IMG/VR virus record: IMGVR_UViG_3300030397_000588
Location: 1 to 45,876 of that record
Direction: 5' to 3' (one strand)
Length of the DNA: 45,876 nucleotides
DNA from: a virus
Lineage: Duplodnaviria > Caudoviricetes
Shown: piece by piece, positions 2,932-40,117 of the stretch
Position numbering within the stretch: the stretch's first letter is position 1
How the letters are laid out: every line of letters starts with the position of its first letter
Program-made: the position numbers and the translations under genes
The notes under the pieces: model-generated
What the model was told of the DNA's origin: nothing
Seen by the model: the letters and a program-made list of their open reading frames with translations, nothing else
Database searches by the model: none

Positions 2932-3390
2932 TTACGCATCAACAGCTTCTTTCGTGTAGGCTCCATTACCGCCTAACTCGAAGTTTGCTGTTGCAATTTC
3001 GTTGTTTGGAAGTCCTAGCTCCCAGGACAAAGCGTTGGCGTTGCCGCGAATCTGCAGATCGTTGGTTACATTCGAAGTAATCAGCCAGTACAGAATCTTG
3101 TTCGCGCTTGTCGTCGTCTGGACAGCGTCCCAGATAATGTCCTGCCCTGCGTCGTCGTCATGGCCCCACTCAACGGTGCCGCTAATCGTGTAATTCTGGT
3201 TACCTGATAACGTAGTGCCACGCGAACCATTGTCCTTGTTGTTCGATTCGATCCGCTCCGATACGTCAGAGAAGTTCACGTCACGAAGGAGTCCAACCAG
3301 CGTGTAGTTGGTGATCTCGTCTGGGTCCGTGGGCTCTGTCGCACTGTTGACGTAGAGCAGATACTCTTTGCCGTTTACAATATTCGCCAT
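2932..3390 (-). CDS. Major tail tube protein
   Basis: 152 aa, NG.EYLLYV...IESNNKD...TISGTV...ATANFELGGNG pattern of TP901-1/HK97-like tube proteins; followed by hairpin aggggc-cgaa-gcccct (2912-2927). Confidence 0.85.
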   Translation of the reverse strand: MANIVNGKEYLLYVNSATEPTDPDEITNYTLVGLLRDVNFSDVSERIESNNKDNGSRGTTLSGNQNYTISGTVEWGHDDDAGQDIIWDAVQTTTSANKILYWLITSNVTNDLQIRGNANALSWELGLPNNEIATANFELGGNGAYTKEAVDA

Positions 3391-3398
3391 TGGATTTG

Positions 3399-3809
3399 CT
3401 AGTTATGGCTTAATAAAAACCGGACCCTGATCAAGATGTGATAAAGATCTCCTTCGGGCCTGTATTCTTTGATTGCGTCGTTTGCCTCAAGCTCTCTGAG
3501 GACTTCGTAGTGATTCGTAAGCGTTAGGCTCAATCCTCCTGGACCAATCGCACTGAGCACGCTTTTAGCTACCGTCTTAGCCTCCGTCTGGCTGTCAGAA
3601 TGGACGTAGACGTTGTGTGCAATGCTGCTTTTGAGCTGGCTCCTGTTCGTATCCTCTGTGCTCTCCGTATCCTCACCAATGACAACAAAAGGATAGGACC
3701 CGCCCTGAGTCGGGTTGGTCGTCACTTCTGCTGTAATAGCGTCCGTGCTGAGCTGCGCCACAATGGCATCGCCCAATACGTCCTGAAGATCTAGAGATGC
3801 AGAGGTCAT
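3399..3809 (-). CDS. Tail terminator/completion protein (DUF3168-like)
   Basis: LQD.L...YPFVVIGED...YHILIRVRF pattern; synteny. Confidence 0.75.
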   Translation of the reverse strand: MTSASLDLQDVLGDAIVAQLSTDAITAEVTTNPTQGGSYPFVVIGEDTESTEDTNRSQLKSSIAHNVYVHSDSQTEAKTVAKSVLSAIGPGGLSLTLTNHYEVLRELEANDAIKEYRPEGDLYHILIRVRFLLSHN

Positions 3810-4222
3810 AACGATTGCAGGTCTTTTATGAGCTGCTCAAGCGCCCGCTTGCCCGCAGGTCTCAGGTGTTGCTGTGAAAACCTCACCATCTCCCGCGTAT
3901 GGGCACGAACCCGGTGCGTATTGTCGCCACGCGTTCTGGTGTGCGCCTTTACGTTCACCGTTCCGGCAAAGCCGAACTCCAAGACAGACGCGTACTCAGC
4001 AGCGGCCACCAGTTCGGCCGTCATAAACGGCGCATTGGCATTATGCCTGATGTTGCGCCGATGAAAACCTGTATCAACAGGCGCAGCCGCTTTGGCGTAG
4101 GCCTCCATGCGCGCACCGGCGACCTTGAACTTTCGATCAGCACGAAAAAGAAACAGATCTATCTCGCGCGTCGTGTTCTCAAGCGCTGGCTTGATGTCGA
4201 CTGATATGCTGACAGTTGCCAT
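3806..4222 (-). CDS. HK97 gp10-like tail completion/neck protein
   Basis: AKAAAPVDTG.HRRNI...EYASVLEFG...LRPA motif; start moved to ATG 4222. Confidence 0.85.
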   Translation of the reverse strand: MATVSISVDIKPALENTTREIDLFLFRADRKFKVAGARMEAYAKAAAPVDTGFHRRNIRHNANAPFMTAELVAAAEYASVLEFGFAGTVNVKAHTRTRGDNTHRVRAHTREMVRFSQQHLRPAGKRALEQLIKDLQSL

Positions 4223-4238
4223 GTCTAGCGTCCCTCCA

Positions 4239-4583
4239 TCAGACCACGTTGTCTTGCTCGTAAGTGGCAATGATGTCGAGTGCACGGCGCCGCATGTCGC
4301 GATCGGTTACCGAGACGATATCATAGAAGCGCGCTACTCCGCAGTAGACATGTTTTATGCGGTTCTTGACCGTCACATCACTGCGGTGCCTGATCGTGAC
4401 CAGTAGCCGCTGCTGCGTCTCGAGGCGATCTGCCGATATCTGCTCGGATGCCGCCACCGGCTGCAAGCTTGCTGGGACCGTGCACACGTCGCTCCACGTC
4501 TCCTGCTGCTCGTGATAGTCATCTTTTGCCAGCGCCACGCTTTGAATCGTGATCTTCTGGTTTAGCCTACCCGCCGCTAGCAT
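4239..4583 (-). CDS. Head closure/head-tail adaptor (SPP1 gp16-like)
   Basis: AGRLNQKITIQ...TW.DV.TV.A...TIRHRSDV...RI motif. Confidence 0.85.
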   Translation of the reverse strand: MLAAGRLNQKITIQSVALAKDDYHEQQETWSDVCTVPASLQPVAASEQISADRLETQQRLLVTIRHRSDVTVKNRIKHVYCGVARFYDIVSVTDRDMRRRALDIIATYEQDNVV

Positions 4584-5140
4584 AGCGACCTCCAGCTATC
4601 GAGATAACTTTTGGACACGTCCGGTAGCATCGCTACAGAAGAACCAACAACGAAGTCTTCCCGGTGCTCGAAGATCGTAGACAGCGCTTTTAGCATACCA
4701 ACCTTCACAGCCTCTGGAGGCTCGTGCTTGGCCGTCGCTGCGTCGGTAGAATCCCACCCTGCAACGTACGTGATCAGAAGGCCTCCGTAGTCCCGCTCGA
4801 TAGTCGGGTGCGTTGTAAAAACGAGCCGCTCACTATCAGCGAGGTAATACGTAGAACTTGCTATCGTCGTCTCGACGTCCGCCTCATCCAACGTTTTCAC
4901 AGAACTGATTGCCGTAACGGGGAAACGCGGCAAATGCACAACCCCGCTATGCGGCACACTATCGAGCCGGTACTGAATGGTCCTCTCCGTGAACGACTTA
5001 CCCACGTAAGCCTCGGCCTTCTCCTGTACGCCACGCATGAGCTGCAACAGCTCCGCATCACTATTGTCCAGATTGAGAAAGTCCGACGCTTCCTGAATGT
5101 CTAACAACAGGTTTGGAGTCGTCGTTACGGTGGTTTCCAT
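4577..5140 (-). CDS. Head-tail connector (HK97 gp6/SPP1 gp15-like)
   Basis: AEAYVG...LPRFPVTAISSV...ITYVAGW...PEAVKVGML...FEHRE motif. Confidence 0.85.
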   Translation of the reverse strand: METTVTTTPNLLLDIQEASDFLNLDNSDAELLQLMRGVQEKAEAYVGKSFTERTIQYRLDSVPHSGVVHLPRFPVTAISSVKTLDEADVETTIASSTYYLADSERLVFTTHPTIERDYGGLLITYVAGWDSTDAATAKHEPPEAVKVGMLKALSTIFEHREDFVVGSSVAMLPDVSKSYLDSWRSLC

Positions 5141-5310
5141 TAGTTACCAGTACTCTTGGTCGCCTTCGGCTTTGATGCTTTCTTAGGCTTCTCGATCACC
5201 CTGACCGATGCGCCTACGGCCTTGATCTGGGCGGCAGTAAGGTCATATTCCTGACCATCTACCAGCTGAATACCAAGACCGGAACAGCTTTTTAAACAGA
5301 GAACTTTCAT
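5140..5310 (-). CDS. Small basic protein after the capsid gene (56 aa)
   Basis: MKVLCLKSCSGLG...KPKKASKPKATKSTGN; stop overlaps the next ATG; usual position for a small head-associated gene. Confidence 0.6.
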   Translation of the reverse strand: MKVLCLKSCSGLGIQLVDGQEYDLTAAQIKAVGASVRVIEKPKKASKPKATKSTGN

Positions 5311-5354
5311 AGCCTATCTATAAGTTGGGGAGCCCCGAAGGACTCCCCGTAAGC

Positions 5355-7256
5355 TTACGCCTGTGTTCCGTATCCAATCGCTTCTGCCTGGAGCACTTTG
5401 TACACCGTGCGGAAATAGTAATGGAGCCGGAGCTGGCCGGTAGAGGCTGCGCTGTAAGGATCGCGAAGCACCTGGAATTCAGGAGCGTTGCGAACACCTA
5501 CGAAGAACCAGTTGCCGAACAGGATCGACTTGTTGCCCGTTGCGAGCGTCTCAACCTTATTCGAGAAGTGAACCGGGTACTGCGCAAGAACACCTTTGGC
5601 GCCGTTCGTGGCAACGCTTGAGCCCTGTGGCGTAGCATCGTACACGAAGTCATTACCCTGGATGGACACGACACTACCGTACGTGGCAGGGCGCGTAACC
5701 CATGCGACGCTGTTGGAATCGTCGAGGTAGTAAGCCAGGTTGTCGTTGAATACGATGTCCTGGATCTCACCGGCAGCGATAGCCGCAGCACCTGCGAACG
5801 TCTTCAGGTTCGTGCCATTCGTCTCGACCTCTGTGATCAGAAGATCATTGTGCGTTTTCGCCATGCCGCGTGCAATGAAGTTCTCGAGGAACGCCATCAG
5901 GCGAGAGTCCTCGTCCTGCAGAAGTTCATCAGAAAGCTCAATGCGCTTCGTGTACTTCGCGAGCGTCATGGCAACGGTGCCGAGCGCAGGCGCATCGCGG
6001 TCATTCGCTGCGGCTTCTGCCGTGCTCACGAATTCGCCGTCGTCCTCAGCATCTACCGGAACGTTAACTGTAGTGCCGGTGCCCGGGATGTTCTGAACCC
6101 CCAGCCGGTTGGCGAGCATCATTTCGTCGCGCCGCGCTACGATGTTCTGGAAGTGCCCCGTAGGAACAGCATTGCCACCATCGGCAGCCGTGCCGATGTT
6201 CATGTCAGTATCGTTGGATGCCTTGATCGAAAGCACTTCGCGGCCTGCGCCGTCTACCGCTTTCATCTCGTTTCCAACGGCGCCCCAGTCGCCCGTCTTG
6301 ATCCAATAGGCAATGGATTTCTTTTCACTATCGCCAGTGCCGGTCTGAAGGTTCAGATTCGGTGCAGACACATCGTGCGCAGCCTTGACAACGCGCTGCG
6401 GCTCCTGTGAAAAGGCTTTCGCCTGCTGCTGAAGCTGCTGGAACTGCACGTACTCATCAAGAGAAATGCCCACCGTCGATGCGCCATTTAGCATCTCGGG
6501 CTGCGATAGATTTGTTTTTACTTCGGCCTTCGGCTCTTCTACAGGTGCCGGTGCGGCAACCTGCTCAGAGGCTTCGTTGGCCTGTACTTCTTCGTTCATT
6601 GTTTTAACGGTTGATTTCGCCTCCACTTCGATATGCAGGCGGATTGGTTCAGCCGCTTTACTTTCCGCTTCTACAGTGGCCGCCACGGATTGCGATTCCG
6701 TCTCCGGGCCTGCTGTCTCCTGAGCATCCAGGTCAGCGATAGGTTGATTTACAATCGATTTTAGGGGAATTGCTTTAGTGCGAGGCTCGCACGGAGTTGG
6801 GGTGAGGCTTGCATCCAGCCCTAGCGGCCACGAGGTGATTTCCCACGACTTGCCCACCGCCTTGCGCTGCACGAGGTGCGAAGCGGTACCGGAAGACCAT
6901 CCGAGTTTTCCCTGCTTTGCCATCTCGAATATGGCCTGCTCGTAATCATCACGCAGGTTAAGCTGACCTTCCAGCCACACGCCGACGTCGTCTGTCTTCA
7001 GATCGCCCAAGCCGAGCGAGCGGGCTTTGAGCGTCTTGTCCAGGCCGTGGTGGTAGAGAATGGGGCTTGATTTGGCGTTCCCGAAGTCAGTCAAAGGAGT
7101 GAAAAAATCACCCGCGAGGTCCGGGTCAGCTGCCGTAGAGAAGCGAACCAGGTAGCCGCCGATCTTGCCTTCGTCGTCGAGGGCCTTAACGGCATCACCT
7201 AGCCAGACGACGGTTTCTGCTTCTAGAGGTGCAATTTCTGGGATGTGATCTTCCAT
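5355..7256 (-). CDS. Fused HK97-type prohead protease - scaffold - major capsid protein
   Basis: N-terminal S78-like protease motifs (IGGYLVRF, DLAGDFF, ILYHHG, LGWSSG, DASLTPTPCEP), acidic linker, then HK97-fold capsid (DGGNAVP, IELSDELLQD, ILFGNW, VLRDPYS). Confidence 0.9.
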   Translation of the reverse strand: MEDHIPEIAPLEAETVVWLGDAVKALDDEGKIGGYLVRFSTAADPDLAGDFFTPLTDFGNAKSSPILYHHGLDKTLKARSLGLGDLKTDDVGVWLEGQLNLRDDYEQAIFEMAKQGKLGWSSGTASHLVQRKAVGKSWEITSWPLGLDASLTPTPCEPRTKAIPLKSIVNQPIADLDAQETAGPETESQSVAATVEAESKAAEPIRLHIEVEAKSTVKTMNEEVQANEASEQVAAPAPVEEPKAEVKTNLSQPEMLNGASTVGISLDEYVQFQQLQQQAKAFSQEPQRVVKAAHDVSAPNLNLQTGTGDSEKKSIAYWIKTGDWGAVGNEMKAVDGAGREVLSIKASNDTDMNIGTAADGGNAVPTGHFQNIVARRDEMMLANRLGVQNIPGTGTTVNVPVDAEDDGEFVSTAEAAANDRDAPALGTVAMTLAKYTKRIELSDELLQDEDSRLMAFLENFIARGMAKTHNDLLITEVETNGTNLKTFAGAAAIAAGEIQDIVFNDNLAYYLDDSNSVAWVTRPATYGSVVSIQGNDFVYDATPQGSSVATNGAKGVLAQYPVHFSNKVETLATGNKSILFGNWFFVGVRNAPEFQVLRDPYSAASTGQLRLHYYFRTVYKVLQAEAIGYGTQA

Positions 7257-7260
7257 AAAC

Positions 7261-7302
7261 AAAAAAGGGGCATCCCTGCCAGTCAGCAGAAATACCCCCT
7301 TT
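7261..7302 (-). terminator. Intrinsic terminator immediately upstream of the capsid start
   Basis: Minus strand aaagggggtatt...gatgcccc followed by tttttt, 4 nt before the capsid ATG. Confidence 0.65.
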
Positions 7303-7384: not shown

Positions 7385-7774
7385 TTACCTCGTCAACGAG
7401 TCCATAAACATAGCATCCCCCTCTTCTTTAGACACGGCCGTAACAGTCGACTTGAGGTAGTGGGTGATCTCGCCGTCCGCATCGCGTACCGGCGCCAGCT
7501 TCGAGACGACTTCACCGATTTCTACGGCTCCCACAGAATCTGTTAGTTTAGATATCTGGTCGCCACCCTTACCTAGGATCAGCCAGTTTAAGTCTGCTCC
7601 TTCGCACAGTGCGATGATTGAGTCGAGGTCTATAGATTCTCTTTTCTTCCACGAAGACAGTGTTGATTGGGCGATTCCTAGCATCTCTACTAGCTCTTTG
7701 TCAGACTTAATACCTAAGTATGCCTTCGCTCTCTCCAAGATATTTTTCGCACTACGTAAATTATCTATTGACAT
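7385..7774 (-). CDS. CI-like repressor A (HTH, no S24 peptidase domain)
   Basis: ILERAK..LGIKSDKELVEMLGIAQSTLSSWKKR...DLNWLILGKG, phage CI-type HTH; start moved to ATG 7774. Confidence 0.85.
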   Translation of the reverse strand: MSIDNLRSAKNILERAKAYLGIKSDKELVEMLGIAQSTLSSWKKRESIDLDSIIALCEGADLNWLILGKGGDQISKLTDSVGAVEIGEVVSKLAPVRDADGEITHYLKSTVTAVSKEEGDAMFMDSLTR

Positions 7775-7796
7775 TTCGCATGATGTAAAGTATATT
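7745..7796 (+). promoter_or_regulatory. Rightward promoter with two operator-like repeats (cassette A)
   Basis: TTGACA(7768)-N17-TATATT(7791); repeats tttcgcactacgtaaa (7745) and tttcgcatgatgtaaa (7774). Confidence 0.75.
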
Positions 7797-7829
7797 ACCT
7801 GTGCACACACTAACACTACAATATATGCA

Positions 7830-8009
7830 ATGTCGACAGTTAGAAAGCAAAGAGTCGTCAGTTATGTGAATGAAGAAGAGCTGAAGGTAATCGAGGGAGC
7901 CGCGAAGATTGACGACCGTACCGTTTCCGATTTTGTTAGGCGAGCAGCGCTGATCGTATCGCAGAGGGTTGTCTCTGGCGAATCAGTACCACATCTCAAG
8001 GCTGCTTAA
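7830..8009 (+). CDS. Ribbon-helix-helix protein (Arc/DUF1778-like)
   Basis: RVVSYVNEEELKVIEGAAKIDDRTVSDFVRRAAL; paralog of 28038-28211. Confidence 0.75.
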   Translation: MSTVRKQRVVSYVNEEELKVIEGAAKIDDRTVSDFVRRAALIVSQRVVSGESVPHLKAA

Positions 8010-8027
8010 GCCAATTCCCTATTAACG

Positions 8028-8127
8028 ACGAAAACCAGCTCCTGTCCGCTAAAACTGAGGCTGGTTTTCTCTAACCCTATCAGGGTAAGTGTATGACGAA
8101 TATACAGGAAAAGACGCCTGTTTGCAA
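8028..8127 (-). ncRNA. Putative antisense RNA unit (promoter, ~65 nt RNA, terminator)
   Basis: Minus strand TTGCAA(8127)-N17-TATATT(8104); hairpin aaaaccagc...gctggtttt 8031-8068 with U-tract; overlaps the RBS of ORF 8093. Confidence 0.55.
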
Positions 8128-8350
8128 CCCGGTAATGGTTGCCAGGGATCTACTTTTCAACTGCCGCGACGAATGTGATCGCATCAATAGTCTCCTCAGG
8201 CTTTATCTCTACGCCCGCGATCAAACCGATAAACATGTCCTCAACGGTGCCGACCATGTCTTAGGCGATATCATGGATGAGTTTAGTGGGGTAATGAGCA
8301 CTGTCAACCAGGCGTTCTGCTTGATTAATGGGGAGGTGTGCGATGGCTGA
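8093..8350 (+). CDS. Hypothetical protein
   Basis: Co-oriented ORF in the antirepressor operon; overlaps the next gene. Confidence 0.55.
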   Translation: MTNIQEKTPVCNPVMVARDLLFNCRDECDRINSLLRLYLYARDQTDKHVLNGADHVLGDIMDEFSGVMSTVNQAFCLINGEVCDG

Positions 8351-8615
8351 TATCGTTATTTATTTCAACGGCAAGCGCCTGCCTGAACCTGTATTTAGTG
8401 TAAATACGCGCGGCAGGCTTGCACCTGAAGGCCGCGAGGCTTTGACACTTCTTCCCGTTAGTCCTCTTCAACGATACCACTATGGCGATAGGTGGGAAAC
8501 CTACGAACGCTGGATAACTGAATACGGTGAGGTTACCGAGTGGTACCGCGTCGAAGAAGACGAAGAAGGTAATCCAGTACTGATTGATATGTTGGCAAAG
8601 GAGGTGTCGCCATGA
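8343..8615 (+). CDS. Hypothetical protein
   Basis: ggaggtg SD before ATG 8343; ATGA overlap with the antirepressor. Confidence 0.6.
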   Translation: MADIVIYFNGKRLPEPVFSVNTRGRLAPEGREALTLLPVSPLQRYHYGDRWETYERWITEYGEVTEWYRVEEDEEGNPVLIDMLAKEVSP

Positions 8616-9388
8616 ACATAACACCTTTCAGCTTCGAGGAATTCGAAATCCGTACCACGGTCATTGAAAACGACCCCTGGTTTATCGGCAAGGATGTAGC
8701 TTCTGCACTAGGATACAAGAACACTCGTGATGCACTGTCTCGCCATGTCGACAATGAGGATAAAAGGGTGGTCGCGTTTGCCGACCACCTTGGAAATGAG
8801 CAGAAAACAACGATTATCAACGAGTCAGGCCTCTATTCACTCATACTCCGCTCAAAACTAGAATCTGCCAAGGCATTCAAACGCTGGGTAACATCTGAAG
8901 TGCTGCCAGCACTGCGCAAGACAGGCAGCTACACGATCCAGCAGCCGCCCACACACGCCGAAGCATTGCGTGGCTGGGCCGATGAAATCGAGATCAGAGA
9001 AGAGCTAGAGCGCCAGCTCGAAGCCGCGCAGCCAGCTATCGAATTCGTTGAGTACTCAGTAAACACCGAAGGTACCTTCTCTTTCGATCAGGCTGCTAAG
9101 CTGCTGCGTATGAAGACGGCCGATGGCAGGCCAATCGGCCGCAATCTGCTCGTAAAGGGACTCTTCAACCTCGGTATCCTGATGAAGAGCGGCAATCACA
9201 AGGTGCCGAAGCAGGAGCATGTTAACGCTGGCAGGTTTGAGGTGAAGTATTCACTGTACCAGGATGATCAGGGACGGGAGTTCTCAACGCCGACAACACA
9301 GGTTACTTCGAAAGGGTTGCAGTGGATACGTGGAAGGCTGATTAGCGTGGGGTGTTCGCCTGTGCAGCAATTGGTATTGGTGAAGTGA
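8612..9388 (+). CDS. ant: Phage antirepressor (BRO-N plus ANT/KilAC)
   Basis: PWFIGKDVASALGY...INESGLYSLILRSK...FKRWVTSEVLPALRKTGSY plus AKLL...IGRN.L...PKQEH...T.VT.KG. Confidence 0.92.
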   Translation: MNITPFSFEEFEIRTTVIENDPWFIGKDVASALGYKNTRDALSRHVDNEDKRVVAFADHLGNEQKTTIINESGLYSLILRSKLESAKAFKRWVTSEVLPALRKTGSYTIQQPPTHAEALRGWADEIEIREELERQLEAAQPAIEFVEYSVNTEGTFSFDQAAKLLRMKTADGRPIGRNLLVKGLFNLGILMKSGNHKVPKQEHVNAGRFEVKYSLYQDDQGREFSTPTTQVTSKGLQWIRGRLISVGCSPVQQLVLVK

Positions 9389-9389
9389 A

Positions 9390-9590
9390 CTATGCAGCGC
9401 TTTTGTAGCCCTTGATAAAAAGACCGCTCCGTCCTCCGATTTTTGCGACAGTAACCAGCGACAGCTTGCCGCTGTACACGTCCCGAGCGAGCTGGATCAG
9501 CCGCTCCAGGTCCTTCTGCGTAAGCTCATCAGGCGGCTCGTATTTTACGCCTGGATCAGTCTGGTATTTTGGGGTCCCGGTGTTGGTCAT
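9390..9590 (-). CDS. Hypothetical protein
   Basis: ATGA-coupled chain downstream of MuF; ends in KSAA. Confidence 0.5.
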   Translation of the reverse strand: MTNTGTPKYQTDPGVKYEPPDELTQKDLERLIQLARDVYSGKLSLVTVAKIGGRSGLFIKGYKSAA

Positions 9591-9772
9591 GAATCTATAG
9601 ATTCTATACTCTCGATCTCGTCATCGTCAAAGAACTGGTCGTCAGCAGTCCATACCCTGTATCCTGGCTCGTAGTCTGATATCGACACGATCCCGATGTA
9701 TTCTTCATCCTCGACAGTTGTGATCCGTACCTGATCGCCGTTTTCAGGGGTGTAGCTCATAAGTCGTCTCAT
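9587..9772 (-). CDS. Hypothetical acidic protein
   Basis: ATGA-coupled to neighbours. Confidence 0.5.
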   Translation of the reverse strand: MRRLMSYTPENGDQVRITTVEDEEYIGIVSISDYEPGYRVWTADDQFFDDDEIESIESIDS

Positions 9773-9975
9773 GGTTCGATCATTTTTCGAATATGAAACT
9801 CCATAACCCGATCTCCCCAAAAGGTACCCGTCTCGACATCGTACCCGCCGTCATACAGCATTTCCCTGTTGATTGATATCTTTGAACCAGAAACAGGCGA
9901 CACAAACTCTATTGCATCAGGCAGTTCTTCATAGGGAGTGCCTGCGCCGATCTCGTCTGCGTTGTACCTGCTCAT
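9769..9975 (-). CDS. Hypothetical protein
   Basis: ATG 9975 overlaps the MuF stop, with ggagg SD. Confidence 0.55.
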   Translation of the reverse strand: MSRYNADEIGAGTPYEELPDAIEFVSPVSGSKISINREMLYDGGYDVETGTFWGDRVMEFHIRKMIEP

Positions 9976-10679
9976 AAGTCCTCCGAAAACACTGGGATCA
10001 TAGTGCACCGGCAGTTCACCGTTTGAGATGGTGGCCCATCAGGATCACCCGGATGCTTGAGATTGAAGCCACCCACCACGAATGACGCATCCAGTGCAAT
10101 TGGCTCCGCAAGCTCCGGGTGCATCCTCGTGTCGTGATCCTCCCTCACGCGCTCGTCCTGCGTACTGAGCCAGCCTTTGGCGTCAAGGCCCGCCTCCTGC
10201 CACGAAAGCAGCGTACCCGCCTCGAATGCGCCCACAACGACCGTATTGGTGATGCGATCGACGCGATGAGCCCGGTACCCCTCGAACTTGGCCCGCATGG
10301 CCCGCTGCATCTCCTGCTGCGTGGCATTCTCCTGCACCATCTGCACCAGCATTGAGGTGATGTCCTTCTCCGTGTGCTGATTCACCAGCTCGGAGCGGGA
10401 CACCTGCCTTGCAATGATATCAAGCTGCACGTTACGGGCCTCTAGCTGCTCCTCTGTAAGCTCACCCAGGCCTGCACGTAGCATACCGGCTAACATGCCG
10501 TCCTCGAGTATGCGGCGGATGTTACCTATAAGGAGCTGCAAAAAGCGCTCTTTCCACTTTTGGAAATTGAAGAAGCTGCTGAAGTCGATCATTTTGATCT
10601 GTCCAACCAACTCAGCCTCTTGCTCATCGAAGAACCGGCGCACAGCAGCAGCAACGGGCGGGCGGTGCACGTCACGCAT
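9972..10679 (-). CDS. Minor head protein MuF/SPP1 gp7-like (probably also made as a portal fusion)
   Basis: RVDRITNT...KGWLSTQDERVREDH...F.VGG..LKHPGDP.GP..TVNCRC. Confidence 0.9.
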   Translation of the reverse strand: MRDVHRPPVAAAVRRFFDEQEAELVGQIKMIDFSSFFNFQKWKERFLQLLIGNIRRILEDGMLAGMLRAGLGELTEEQLEARNVQLDIIARQVSRSELVNQHTEKDITSMLVQMVQENATQQEMQRAMRAKFEGYRAHRVDRITNTVVVGAFEAGTLLSWQEAGLDAKGWLSTQDERVREDHDTRMHPELAEPIALDASFVVGGFNLKHPGDPDGPPSQTVNCRCTMIPVFSEDL

Positions 10680-10797
10680 ACGCTCTACAGCTTGCCACTC
10701 TCTTTCTGGTTCTTCTGTTAATTGCTTGAACCAAGCATACTTGTAATCAGGCCCAATAACACCCGTTCGCGCTAAACCAAATCCCTCCAGATATTTT

Positions 10798-10847
10798 AGG
10801 CTCTCTGCATATCCTGGATAATGCTTTGCAGGAGCCTCTAAAAACCC
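10798..10847 (-). other. Putative -1 ribosomal frameshift signal (G GGT TTT plus downstream hairpin)
   Basis: GTG GGT TTT TAG at the portal end; the -1 frame is open into MuF; stem aggctc-ctgca...tgcag-a-gagcct directly 3'. Confidence 0.7.
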
Positions 10848-12316
10848 ACGAACGGAGGCTCGAACACCTCATCTAGTTCCATATCGGTATCGAGGCGCTG
10901 CCGTATAATCCCTGCCTCATAATCGTTTAGGTGATCAGGTGAGAACTTACAATCACGTCCTTTACTTTTGATCTTGCGGCGCCACGCCAAAATATCCGTT
11001 TCTACATCCCCTGCCTTCCAAGTGGCCTCGATAGGTTGTCCCGCAGTGCTGGCTGCTTGTCGCATGGCTACTGCTTGCAGTTCCTCGACTATGGTATCGC
11101 GGAGAAGAGCTTTTAAGTCATTCTCTCCCATTTCCTCTGTTTCCGCACCCTGTGTCAGTCTACGCGGCTCCTCTTCACGCACATCAATCACAACTTCTTG
11201 AGCGCCCAGTGGCTCATAACCAAGCAGCTCACGCCCTTCGTCCTGCGTCAGCACTGGCCCACCAGTAACCATGCTCACCTTCTGAGCCTTGTCGAGCTCG
11301 TAGCGCTGTACAACCTCAAGACGTTCGGGGTGGAATGAGAACCTATACTGCAGCGGAGCAAACAGTTGCTTATTGAGCTCGCGCATCAAAAACTTGGACT
11401 CAGGAATATTGGTGTATAGCTGATAGTTGATATGATCCTGCTCCGCAGTAGCGAAATTGGCCGCGTTCGACATCATCAGCGAGAACGGAATACCAAGTGC
11501 TGCACACAAGGCTTCGCGCTGCTCCCTTGTAAGGTCACTATCGTTAAGATCCTTTAGCCCCTCGCCTACGACATGCGGCGTAACCTTGGCATTGAATATG
11601 TGCTGTTTTGCTGCATTAAACCATCCCGAAACTGTCTCTCGCCAGTTCTTAAGCAGCTTCTTCTTCTCATCGGGAGTGATATTCTCCGCCCCTTCTACGC
11701 TCAAGATCGTGGCCTTAATAAGCCCCTTGTCCAGGAAGGACACTAAGAACCCATCGAGCGCCCGTAACACCTGCGCATTCTTGCGTCCCGGCGTGTGGAA
11801 ACCAGGGCCGCTCTCTACAAACGGATCAGGGTGAAACAGGGCAATGATGTCTTCGGCCTGATACGTCTCCTGCCCACCATTAACAGTGCGCCGGTATCCC
11901 ACAATACCACTCGACTCCTTCTTTACAGGCTCGACTTTGAGTGGGTTGAAGTAGAATAGATTATCAACGCTGCGCCCATCCGACTCCTTTAGCGTATAGG
12001 CTTTGCCAACTGTAACAAGGGCAGCCTCCCATACATAGAGCAGGTGAGGTAGATTCTCGGCAAAAGACAATTCCTCCGGCACATCCGGCATGTCGCAGTC
12101 CCACAGCACGTCTTCGCTGCCAGTGCGCGTAATTGTCCATGGCATGTTTTGTATGGACTTCGCTCGCAGATCTACACACCTATGGAACCATCCCTGCTCG
12201 TGGAAGAGCGTCGAGGTGCCCACGCTCGTCTTCTTATCCTCGCTAAACCAGGAGAGAATGGTGTTTAGCGATGTGGTTTTGAGGGAATTTGCATGTAATA
12301 ATTTTACGCCCGCCAT
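10838..12316 (-). CDS. Portal protein (HK97 family)
   Basis: FHRCVDLRA...GKAY...REALCAALGIP..M...ANFATAEQ...LTQDEGRELLGYEPL; lies after TerL. Confidence 0.9.
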   Translation of the reverse strand: MAGVKLLHANSLKTTSLNTILSWFSEDKKTSVGTSTLFHEQGWFHRCVDLRAKSIQNMPWTITRTGSEDVLWDCDMPDVPEELSFAENLPHLLYVWEAALVTVGKAYTLKESDGRSVDNLFYFNPLKVEPVKKESSGIVGYRRTVNGGQETYQAEDIIALFHPDPFVESGPGFHTPGRKNAQVLRALDGFLVSFLDKGLIKATILSVEGAENITPDEKKKLLKNWRETVSGWFNAAKQHIFNAKVTPHVVGEGLKDLNDSDLTREQREALCAALGIPFSLMMSNAANFATAEQDHINYQLYTNIPESKFLMRELNKQLFAPLQYRFSFHPERLEVVQRYELDKAQKVSMVTGGPVLTQDEGRELLGYEPLGAQEVVIDVREEEPRRLTQGAETEEMGENDLKALLRDTIVEELQAVAMRQAASTAGQPIEATWKAGDVETDILAWRRKIKSKGRDCKFSPDHLNDYEAGIIRQRLDTDMELDEVFEPPFVGF

Positions 12317-12328
12317 TTGCTTACTTAT

Positions 12329-13849
12329 TTAAAACGATAGCCATGTATTAGCTTCATAGAATGCATAAACGACACCATCCGCCCTGTCCGGCGAACGGCC
12401 AATTTTGTCTTTTATACTGTCTTTTGATTCAATTTGAATACCAGATTTAACCACCTTGAAGTTTGGGGCGCAAAGTTCTTGTCTAAGCTTATTATCATCA
12501 GGTAGTGCAATCTCATAGTCCGATTTCGGATCGAGCATTTCACGCAATTTCCAATACGCCTCTGCTCGCTTATTTACAAACTTGAATTTCCCCGATTTGT
12601 CGCGCCGCTCGCTGCCCTCGGATGCATTGAATGGATAGCAAGGGATCGAGTCCTTGGCTATGTCGTAGGCGCTCGATCCGTAGCCTATCACGTCAACGAC
12701 GGCCATTGCGTTATCCTTATGATGCGCAATCATGTAAGCAGCCGCTGTGTTGCCATCAGGCACCGCCTTTCCAGGATACTCGATGATCTCCGGCACATAG
12801 TCTCCGTAGCGAGGAACGATCACTGTCGAATCCCTGCCGCCTCGTGAGGGGTCGACGCCCATCTGCGTCATCGGCACACCTGGCTCGAAGTCCTCTTCCT
12901 TCAGCTTCTTCCACCGCTCCTGCGCAGCTTTCACCCATGCTGTCGGTATCACCTGCAGCGGATTTGCTGCCAAGCCGCGCTTGAAATCGCCCTTCTTGAA
13001 AGCCTCGCGAAGCTCTTCAGGAAGCGCGTCCAAGACCTTGTCGTACCCCGTCTCCAGTAGATAAGGGTTATCGTCAAGGCTGGCCGGTATAAAGGTGCGG
13101 CTCTTCAGGTCCCTCATCTCGCCATCGATCTCAACCGGCCCCGGCTCACTGAACCACACGAGCTGATCGCCCTTGTACGTGTAGTAGCGGAGCTCGCCTG
13201 GTTCTGCCGGCTCCGGGTATTCGGGATCGAGCCACGGCGCCCACTCATCAATCACCCACGACTCGTCTTCCGTTACAGGCGGGTTCGTCGTCGCCACCAC
13301 GCGGCACCGCTGATCCTTAATGCTCGTACGGTTCCAGATGATAAGGAATCGGTACTGGCTACGCGTGAACTCGGTAAGCTCATCGAATGCCTTCAAATCG
13401 TGAGGACGACCTTTGTAGCGGTTCTTGGAGTGCTCATGCGGAACGCCCGCAAACTCAACGCTACGACCGCCGGGGAGGCCCCTCCACACCCAATCGCTGC
13501 GGTTTAGCTTGCCCGCATTACCAACGATCTCTTCTGATCGTGAGATAATACCTTCGGCCCCTTTCATCTGCGCGAGCTCACGCCTGAATATGACGCTGCT
13601 TCGGTGCTGCGTAAGGGACAGCCCAAGCAGTAGATCCGTCTTACCACCACCTGCGGCACCACCGTAAAGCAGTTCGTCCGCATCGCATATCAATGCGTCC
13701 GTCTGCGGCCCGCCTAGCGGCTGCCAATCAATATTTGAAAGAACGTCTTCCGGCTCCTTATCAGGGTCAAGCTGCTGCGCCAGCTCCTCTAGCCAGGAGT
13801 CCGCTAATGTCTCTTGAGACTGATCGAAGTATGTCGTCGTCACTGACAT
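12329..13849 (-). CDS. terL: Terminase large subunit
   Basis: Walker A YGGAAGGGKT, Walker B FDELTEF, TTNP, nuclease GVDPSRGGRD and GRSPDRADG. Confidence 0.95.
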   Translation of the reverse strand: MSVTTTYFDQSQETLADSWLEELAQQLDPDKEPEDVLSNIDWQPLGGPQTDALICDADELLYGGAAGGGKTDLLLGLSLTQHRSSVIFRRELAQMKGAEGIISRSEEIVGNAGKLNRSDWVWRGLPGGRSVEFAGVPHEHSKNRYKGRPHDLKAFDELTEFTRSQYRFLIIWNRTSIKDQRCRVVATTNPPVTEDESWVIDEWAPWLDPEYPEPAEPGELRYYTYKGDQLVWFSEPGPVEIDGEMRDLKSRTFIPASLDDNPYLLETGYDKVLDALPEELREAFKKGDFKRGLAANPLQVIPTAWVKAAQERWKKLKEEDFEPGVPMTQMGVDPSRGGRDSTVIVPRYGDYVPEIIEYPGKAVPDGNTAAAYMIAHHKDNAMAVVDVIGYGSSAYDIAKDSIPCYPFNASEGSERRDKSGKFKFVNKRAEAYWKLREMLDPKSDYEIALPDDNKLRQELCAPNFKVVKSGIQIESKDSIKDKIGRSPDRADGVVYAFYEANTWLSF

Positions 13850-39055: not shown

Positions 39056-40117
39056 ATGAAACGACTATATAAACACCCCTTATTTAATATTTTCGCAGCT
39101 GTTTTATACGCTGCTTTTGTAATGCCTGAACTTGTATCTGCGCCAAGCTGGATACTGTTTATTTCGGGTTTTGTCGGACTTGGCTTTTTTGTGTGGGTGG
39201 GCGTTTCGAAGCACGGCACTTACTGGACAAAGAAGTTTTCGTCATTTGCACAAGGTAAGGCTCAGGTCTGCCTAATCTTAGCCTGGGGGCTGTTCATGGG
39301 CGGGTGCACTTGTACTCGCATAGAACAAGGCTATACGGGTGTCATGGCAGACTTGATTGGTGGTGACAAAGGCGGCGTAACAGAGCTAACTCCAGGACGC
39401 GTCTGGTATAATCCAATAAACAAGGATGTCTACACCTTCCCCAATTTTGTGCAACGCGTAGCCTGGACGGCGACAGATGACGAGGGCTCACGTCATGACG
39501 AGGCTATCAGGCTTCTTAGTCAGGACCAACTTGAGTTTACAAACGATGTGGGATTCTCCTACTACGTTGCCAATATTAAAGGCTGCTCAAAGTCTGTATT
39601 TGTCATGTACAGGACAAACATACGGACGATTACGAATGGGCCGCTACGCGACATTGTACGCAAGGAAATGCAGGACGTTTTTAGCCAATATCCTGCTTCT
39701 GATATTTATGGAGAGAAAAGGCCAATTGTGGTTCAGGAGATTGCGGACGGCGTCGCAGCTCGCATGAGCCGAATGAAGGGCGAGAACGGAGAGGTGTGTT
39801 TTGTTATTGAAGACTTTGCAATTCTCAAGCTAGATCCTCCAGGAAGTGTAAAGGATGCGGTAGAGCGCAAGATTCAAGCAGCTCAGGACGCTCAACGAGA
39901 GCGAGAAAACCTACTCAAAATCACCTATCAGTCTCAGCAGGACTCGATTCGGGCCGTGATGGATGCTCGTAATAATCGCGTAATGTCTGAGTCGATTACG
40001 CCTGAACTACTCAAGTGGAAGCAGCTAGAGCTTATGGAGAAGAAGTGGAATGGGCAAATGCCGCAGGTGATGAGCAGTGAAGCTTCGGGGCTGATGCTAC
40101 AGCTTCCAAACAATTAA
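39056..40117 (+). CDS. SPFH/Band 7 (prohibitin-like) membrane protein
   Basis: CTRIEQGYTGV...GRVWYNP...YTFPNFVQ...P.SVKDAVERKIQAAQDAQ...SESITPELL...EKKWNGQMP. Confidence 0.85.
   Translation: MKRLYKHPLFNIFAAVLYAAFVMPELVSAPSWILFISGFVGLGFFVWVGVSKHGTYWTKKFSSFAQGKAQVCLILAWGLFMGGCTCTRIEQGYTGVMADLIGGDKGGVTELTPGRVWYNPINKDVYTFPNFVQRVAWTATDDEGSRHDEAIRLLSQDQLEFTNDVGFSYYVANIKGCSKSVFVMYRTNIRTITNGPLRDIVRKEMQDVFSQYPASDIYGEKRPIVVQEIADGVAARMSRMKGENGEVCFVIEDFAILKLDPPGSVKDAVERKIQAAQDAQRERENLLKITYQSQQDSIRAVMDARNNRVMSESITPELLKWKQLELMEKKWNGQMPQVMSSEASGLMLQLPNN

Follow-up and report, generated by a model that had tools for sequence, protein, structure and literature searches.

A candidate programmed −1 frameshift joining portal and MuF proteins in an uncultured aquatic phage and its relatives

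Introduction

How is a MuF-family protein made when its reading frame opens inside the preceding portal gene and runs on for dozens of codons before the first start codon? The question is raised by the window analyzed here, the whole 45,876-base contig of an uncultured aquatic phage (IMG/VR record IMGVR_UViG_3300030397_000588), in which the HK97-type portal gene (10838..12316, minus strand) ends GTG GGT TTT TAG and the MuF-coding frame lies at −1 relative to it. An initial annotation proposed that a −1 frameshift fuses the two proteins. Judging from the comparative sequence analysis reported below, we put the probability of a programmed −1 ribosomal frameshift on the last portal codon at about 0.88.

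Frameshifts of this kind are established in phages for tail chaperones and for some capsid and tail genes. In E. coli, U_UUU tetramers and R_RRU_UUY heptamers are shift-prone, the heptamers efficiently so, with stimulatory hairpins located 4–10 nt downstream (PMC4066793). Low copy number in the head, binding to the portal and help in DNA delivery are known for the MuF superfamily from SPP1 only, where the portal protein gp6 brings the MuF-family protein gp7 into the head in one to few copies (PMC5576092, PMC6316719).

Organization of the portal–MuF junction

The portal gene follows that of the terminase large subunit (12329..13849, minus strand; Pfam Terminase_6N, phrog_979) and encodes a 492-aa protein in the 0 frame (PF04860, E 1.6e-25; phrog_2662 positions 59–475). 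Alignment with relatives delimits a small C-terminal domain at about residues 439–492 (10841..11000, minus strand), the last residue of which is Phe. This end of the gene carries the slip site G_GGU_UUU (10841..10847, minus strand), including the U_UUU tetramer (10844–10841) that is common to all signal-bearing lineages described below, and the stop TAG follows immediately 3′ (10838..10840, minus strand). The −1 frame stays open over 298 codons from stop to stop (10868 to 9972), and its first ATG, GTG or TTG past the slip site is the ATG at 10679, 54 codons on, which leaves a gap of 158 bp behind the portal gene. From this ATG a gene caller would mark a 235-aa protein with a MuF/SPP1-gp7-like domain (9972..10679, minus strand), which in the −1 frame matches PF04233 (E 5.6e-7, 30.7 bits against a cut-off of 29.6), phrog_2468 (E 2e-29) and positions 480–711 of phrog_2662.

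With its PF04233 domain directly downstream of a portal gene, the product falls into the MuF superfamily; it ends about 10 residues past the CRC motif, with no C-terminal toxin extension of the kind found in MuF polymorphic toxins. The two proteins are not in one frame, being split by the TAG at 10840–10838, and their predicted joint product would have 781 aa and 88.5 kDa. Within the window, an XXXYYYZ heptamer (Y = A or T) no more than 15 codons from the stop occurs in 3 of 108 open reading frames (ORFs; stop-to-stop, at least 100 codons), and of these the portal alone is followed by a long −1 frame (289 codons, vs. 24 and 37). The positions given earlier for the portal end, the heptamer (10847–10841), the −1 frame, the downstream hairpin and the 158-bp gap were all reproduced from the sequence.

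An obvious concern is that a single inserted or deleted letter could have split what is in fact a simple in-frame fusion, or that such a fusion has become a pseudogene. Relatives with in-frame fusions exist and homopolymers attract errors, both of which would favor this explanation. However, assembled contigs of three sequencing runs (X1–X3, depth ~1100–2000; contigs rather than raw reads, X1 possibly being the source and the only one to bridge 31 letters on both sides) agree with the site and show no indel, and a depth-2 relative from a different study (X5) crosses it gap-free, its listed differences lying upstream of the heptamer. Since the identical break, in the same direction, also recurs in 11 lineages (see below), we consider an error or a pseudogene effectively refuted.

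Conservation of the slip site and −1 frame

To assess conservation, portal relatives were gathered by protein similarity, ignoring the junction, and a profile yielded 182 stop-containing portal ORFs in the loci with 117 distinct junctions, 43 of which have the small C-terminal domain while 74 lack it. The sequence N_NNT_TTT followed by a stop is present in 40 of the 43 junctions with the domain (GGGTTTT 22, CGATTTT 7, GGATTTT 6, TGATTTT 4 and GGTTTTT 1), and Phe is the C-terminal residue of 41 of 52 relative proteins carrying it. A strict X_XXY_YYZ heptamer is found in 22 of these 40 junctions and absent from the other 18. Clustering at 80% reduced the set to 13 lineages with the C-terminal domain (27–65% pairwise identity), to which we added by hand a 14th (L135) that lacks the domain and has the signal. 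Ten of the 13, as well as L135, have T_TTT together with a −1 frame that stays open for 241–293 codons and encodes MuF (in L037 the frame leaves the locus at 242), and in 10 of these 11 lineages the stop directly follows the slip site, L135 having its slip site one codon before the stop. The heptamer expected at the 3′ ends of related portals is thus not universal in full; its U_UUU core and the open −1 frame are what is conserved and, together with the hairpin described below, these are kept across divergent relatives.

Distant portals without the signal have other arrangements at the junction, namely overlapping ATGA, TAATG or GTGA starts or in-frame fusions. Among the 74 junctions that lack the C-terminal domain are overlapping starts and ORFs with a MuF-type CRC motif at their end. 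As a separate observation, the distant portals L147–L163 end in GGA AAG or GGA AAA followed by TAA, an A_AAG-type tetramer, with short −1 frames. No close portal relative was found in the isolated-phage collection (four records at 22–26% identity), none at all in assembled genome contigs searched for a host, and an initial metagenome scan returned no matches.

The site is also constrained at the level of the DNA letters. Viral and metagenome contigs were scanned for the pattern F-x-P-P-F-V-G-F followed by TRR, leaving synonymous bases free, which recovered 96 loci. G_GGT_TTT was present in all 43 portal loci (five lineages, many duplicates) vs. none of the 53 chance matches, 14 of which contain T_TTT; a further 20 chance matches from genomes also lacked the heptamer. 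The −1 frames of the portal loci span 265–343 codons (37 loci) or run off the contig (six loci), as opposed to 2–87 codons among the chance matches. From the codon usage of each gene, the joint probability of T_TTT in 11 lineages is ~1e-10.4, an optimistic value given that the lineages are related. Finally, the junction of the window shares 49 of 53 nt with L001 and 44 of 53 nt with L026, for portal genes that are 63–64% identical and in which only 40–42% of third positions of shared residues are the same.

Coding selection on the linker

The linker between the slip site and the first start codon (10680..10841, minus strand; 54 codons) has no start codon of its own, and the first possible start lies 27–83 codons past the slip site across the 11 lineages. 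Of the 149 substitutions located ahead of that start in five disjoint pairs (out of 11 pairs compared), 77 affect third positions of the −1 frame (p 3e-6), and all 10 relatives that reach that far share an EW-x-[AE]-[VI]-E motif preceding the Met. An AlphaFold2 model of the MuF frame (24 sequences, mean pLDDT 84) predicts helices at residues 11–26 and 45–57, the second passing through Met55, with low confidence at 29–41; a Foldseek search of this model against the PDB found nothing at E 0.001 or below. These patterns argue for a linker that is translated as protein in the −1 frame and is predicted to be partly helical.

Proteins in which the two domains are naturally joined point in the same direction. 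The family phrog_2662 spans portal (59–475) and MuF (480–711) in that order, and both Pfam domains are present in 10 of the 17 longer relatives of MuF, as well as in 3 of 45 relatives of the portal. When the −1 frames are combined into a profile, it matches 10 of 15 long relatives, with the match starting at profile position 6–32. Such natural in-frame fusions suggest that a portal–MuF fusion product is viable. Among the MuF relatives, one (53% identity) also carries an intein domain inside the C-terminal CRC motif.

Predicted RNA structure downstream of the slip site

As the initial annotation had noted, a strong hairpin follows the slip site. It is predicted at 10798..10837 (minus strand) with 11 bp, one bulge and a 17-nt loop, begins 3 nt past the heptamer, and has a folding energy of −17.1 kcal/mol, with z at −3.2 when 51 nt are considered and at −0.7 when 81 nt are. 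A stem is present in all 11 lineages, with its onset 3–5 nt past the U run; z is −2.8 or lower in eight of them and −1.9 and −1.6 in two more, and the mean folding energy over the 11 has its minimum in the segment starting at the slip site. Among seven sequences, two-sided changes affect five of eight base pairs, and the proportion of cells that pair is 80% (0 of 500 shuffles); the structure was, however, built from this very set, in which L037 and L223 do not keep the register. In L135, where the stop comes one codon later, the stem still begins 5 nt from the U run, so that it is keyed to the slip site and not to the stop.

A second stem may form between the hairpin loop (10818–10813) and downstream letters (10791–10786), which would make the structure (10786..10818, minus strand) a pseudoknot. 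The complementarity was first spotted by eye, so that the tests are post hoc: pairing within a lineage exceeded pairing across lineages (12 of 40,320 permutations, eight lineages), and exceeded that in other windows of the same genes (Fisher p 0.003–0.007, likewise post hoc). It is clear in the window, L026, L029 and L035 and weak in about half of the lineages, and a pseudoknot at this site is accordingly possible only in a tentative sense. No Rfam match was found in 9500–12500. In addition, GAGCCT occurs at both 10861–10856 and 10803–10798, flanking the slip site, which gives the 5′ hairpin arm an alternative upstream partner that has no match in L001. A Shine-Dalgarno-like GAGGTG was considered as an upstream stimulator and not counted, as it lies 17 nt from the heptamer and encodes conserved residues.

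Proposed mechanism and its weak points

A slippery site, a downstream structure and an open −1 frame under coding selection, the features by which bacterial −1 frameshifts are recognized, are therefore all present at this junction, and they support reading the portal–MuF join as a frameshift. From them we infer the slippage itself, for which the following course may be proposed. The hairpin would make the ribosome pause at the final codon of the portal, probably with help from slow termination at the adjoining stop, and tRNA-Phe would re-pair from UUU to the overlapping UUU. In the window phage, tRNA-Gly could slip too (GGU to GGG), so that tandem slippage is possible; in relatives with C_GAU_UUU or U_GAU_UUU the first tRNA cannot re-pair, which suggests that the Phe slip is the essential event. 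A strict model with the stop in the A site was set aside, as L135 speaks against it and so do portals with DFQ or DFR at their end; since the stop of L135 comes one codon later, an adjacent stop cannot be required there. A minority of ribosomes would then continue through the 54-codon linker into MuF, producing the 781-aa fusion alongside the 492-aa portal, and fusion subunits would join the 12-subunit portal ring and bring one or a few MuF domains into the head.

Several observations weigh against this reading. Three of the 13 lineages with the C-terminal domain lack the signal (L145, L042 and L140), of which L145 has an in-frame portal–MuF fusion and L042 a MuF gene with its own start, and in L038, a member of the L029 cluster, the signal is present and the −1 frame closes after 40 codons, probably through an indel. 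L220 has only a weak hairpin (z −0.2), as do four extra sub-lineage sequences (L122, L249, L128 and L237; z −0.7 to −1.4), and in the window phage the stem lies 3 nt from the heptamer, nearer than the 4–10 nt rule. Near MuF relatives retain Met55, encoded by the ATG at 10679, in 16 of 18 cases with a residue at that column (22 aligned). Lastly, tetramers shift at only 0.26–5.6% in E. coli even with a strong pseudoknot (PMC4066793). Between one and three fusions per 12 subunits would need 8–25% shifting, more than these measured values, which makes a role of the frameshift in setting MuF stoichiometry the weakest step of the proposal. In the signal-less L140 (L140:2505), the portal carries the C-terminal domain plus a 30-residue tail, and a MuF-like ORF follows in the +1 frame relative to the stop.

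Alternative explanations

The conserved Met55 allows a free 235-aa MuF to be made also, or even mainly, from the ATG at 10679, the frameshift being real and adding only a second, tethered form. The earlier statement that no start codon is available holds for the 54-codon linker and not beyond it, where this Met is conserved in near relatives (in seven of the 16 it is a called start, which could be GTG or TTG). The weak or missing Shine-Dalgarno site before the ATG was at first taken as evidence against initiation there and was dropped: most genes of the window phage have none, and as the portal, terminase and tube genes are among them, its absence at 10679 is uninformative and initiation there is possible. 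More generally, no Shine-Dalgarno match precedes the starts of the portal, terminase, tail tube and terminator genes, several of which have A/T-rich leaders, as is seen in hosts that do not use Shine-Dalgarno pairing. SPP1 gp7, too, is thought to have an alternative start (PMC4168068). Conversely, L001 and two other relatives have Leu at the Met55 column, L001, L029, L135 and L220 have no start for 71–83 codons, and the Met is part of a predicted helix and preceded by conserved residues. We thus regard free MuF as the main or an additional product as unlikely, while noting that it would be compatible with the frameshift.

Two further explanations would dispense with ribosomal slippage altogether. 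Portal and MuF could be separate genes without recoding, the conserved end and hairpin serving as a C-terminal protein motif, a terminator or processing site, or a reinitiation signal; indeed, the C-terminal Phe could be structural, and a weak terminator-like hairpin exists at 10862–10849 (two such hairpins found vs. 2.7 expected by chance). This would however leave unexplained the synonymous fixation of T_TTT, the constant position of MuF in the −1 frame behind an open linker and the third-position bias of that linker; moreover, the main hairpin comes after the U run and not before it, and the distant signal-less portals use overlapping ATGA, TAATG or GTGA starts or in-frame fusions. Such an arrangement therefore appears very improbable. 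The fusion might otherwise arise from slippage of the RNA polymerase on the T run, which is the invariant feature of the site and where one added U would give the same frame. Transcriptional slippage usually needs 8–9 T, however, and the runs here are of just 4–6, while a downstream hairpin at fixed spacing is a signature of ribosomal shifting, so that we give this origin similarly little credence. A programmed ribosomal −1 frameshift remains the reading that we favor.

Relation to known systems

The closest precedent that we found is Brevibacillus phage Emery (KC595516; Merrill et al., 2014), for which a putative, unverified slippage in gp4 was reported with products of 58.9 and 82.5 kDa (PMC4168068). 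In its GenBank record, a joined CDS (3171–5350; our L266) connects the gene that follows the terminase with a MuF domain in the −1 frame by way of U_UUU_UUA, close to the stop, and is labeled head morphogenesis or hypothetical protein; the available text of the paper likewise labels both products SPP1 gp7 head morphogenesis protein and lists no portal (PMC4168068). Emery gp4 lies between the terminase and the protease-capsid genes, its best relative is an annotated portal adjoining a terminase, and it has a weak Portal_T4 match below cut-off and no PDB sequence match, from which it is probably a T4-gp20-like portal. If so, a portal-to-MuF shift has probably been annotated once already, unrecognized. 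Emery thus resembles the window phage in having the gene after the terminase joined to MuF in the −1 frame at U_UUU near a stop, and differs in its probably T4-like (vs. HK97-type) portal and in being a single phage, reported without conservation analysis.

The initial annotation suspected that such a frameshift had not been described. The join annotated in Emery and published in-frame fusions qualify that claim, although full-text literature searches, which reach few subscription papers, found no paper describing a portal–MuF frameshift. Single-ORF portal–MuF fusions are known from Microbacterium phages of subclusters EA3, EA5 and EA8 and cluster EB (PMC7302621). These, like phrog_2662, share their domain order with the fusion predicted here; unlike it, they involve no recoding and no two products, so that every subunit carries MuF unless processed. 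The PRFect study proposed that genes fused in some genomes might be frameshift-joined in others and, in the portion of the article available, names VIP2-MuF and not portal (PMC10885494). In SPP1, a separately translated gp7 binds the portal non-covalently, vs. the covalent tail proposed here.

The tail chaperone G/GT recoding (lambda type; SPP1 17.5/17.5*, PMC6316719) is also a −1 shift late in a structural gene and yields a short and a C-terminally extended product at a fixed ratio. It concerns another gene pair, located between the major tail and tape measure genes, and the chaperones are not virion parts; here, in contrast, the slip is on the last codon and only the tetramer is universal. 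The portal–MuF site is therefore one that works like G/GT recoding and stands outside the G/GT family, as it lies between portal and MuF. The window has an ordinary G/GT-type pair of its own (2892–2207, minus strand), with T TTT TTT at 2632–2626, where the first ORF has ~16 codons left to its stop and the −1 frame stays open into the second. Z_ZZN frameshifting in the IS3 family likewise combines a U_UUU tetramer with a downstream hairpin or pseudoknot; it occurs in transposase genes and, as far as the available text of the source goes, no requirement for an adjacent stop is described (PMC4066793).

Other genes in the window

The head module is interrupted between MuF and the capsid gene (7385–9966) by a Bro-N/KilAC antirepressor gene (8612–9388, plus strand), a CI-like HTH gene (7816–7385) and small ORFs. 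The capsid gene itself (5355–7262, minus strand) encodes 635 aa, of which only the last 260–430 residues correspond to the HK97 capsid domain, the N-terminal part being probably a protease or scaffold fusion. A gene of the SPFH/Band 7 family is located at 39056–40117.

Implications

Taken beyond the window, these results would suggest, tentatively and with doubt slightly outweighing confidence, that portal–MuF is a second widespread and overlooked recoding site in tailed phages, used in more than one portal family (HK97-type and, in Emery, probably T4-like). In this clade it would be the sole route to MuF, with a single tRNA-Phe slip at the last codon stimulated by a stop and a pseudoknot, and would give mixed rings with a set number of tethered MuF domains. 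The proposed portal–MuF frameshift is directly testable in the cultured phage Emery. If the proposal is true, gene callers annotate MuF too short across the clade and overlook a second product of the portal gene, and the junctions offer recoding studies natural U_UUU-plus-stop signals. Portals are treated as homo-dodecamers of one product; on the same condition, the rings of many phages would be mixed, with MuF present on a few of their subunits. Besides binding and full fusion, this would be a third way to place counted copies of MuF at the DNA exit, and it bears on the function of MuF and on the control of its copy number.

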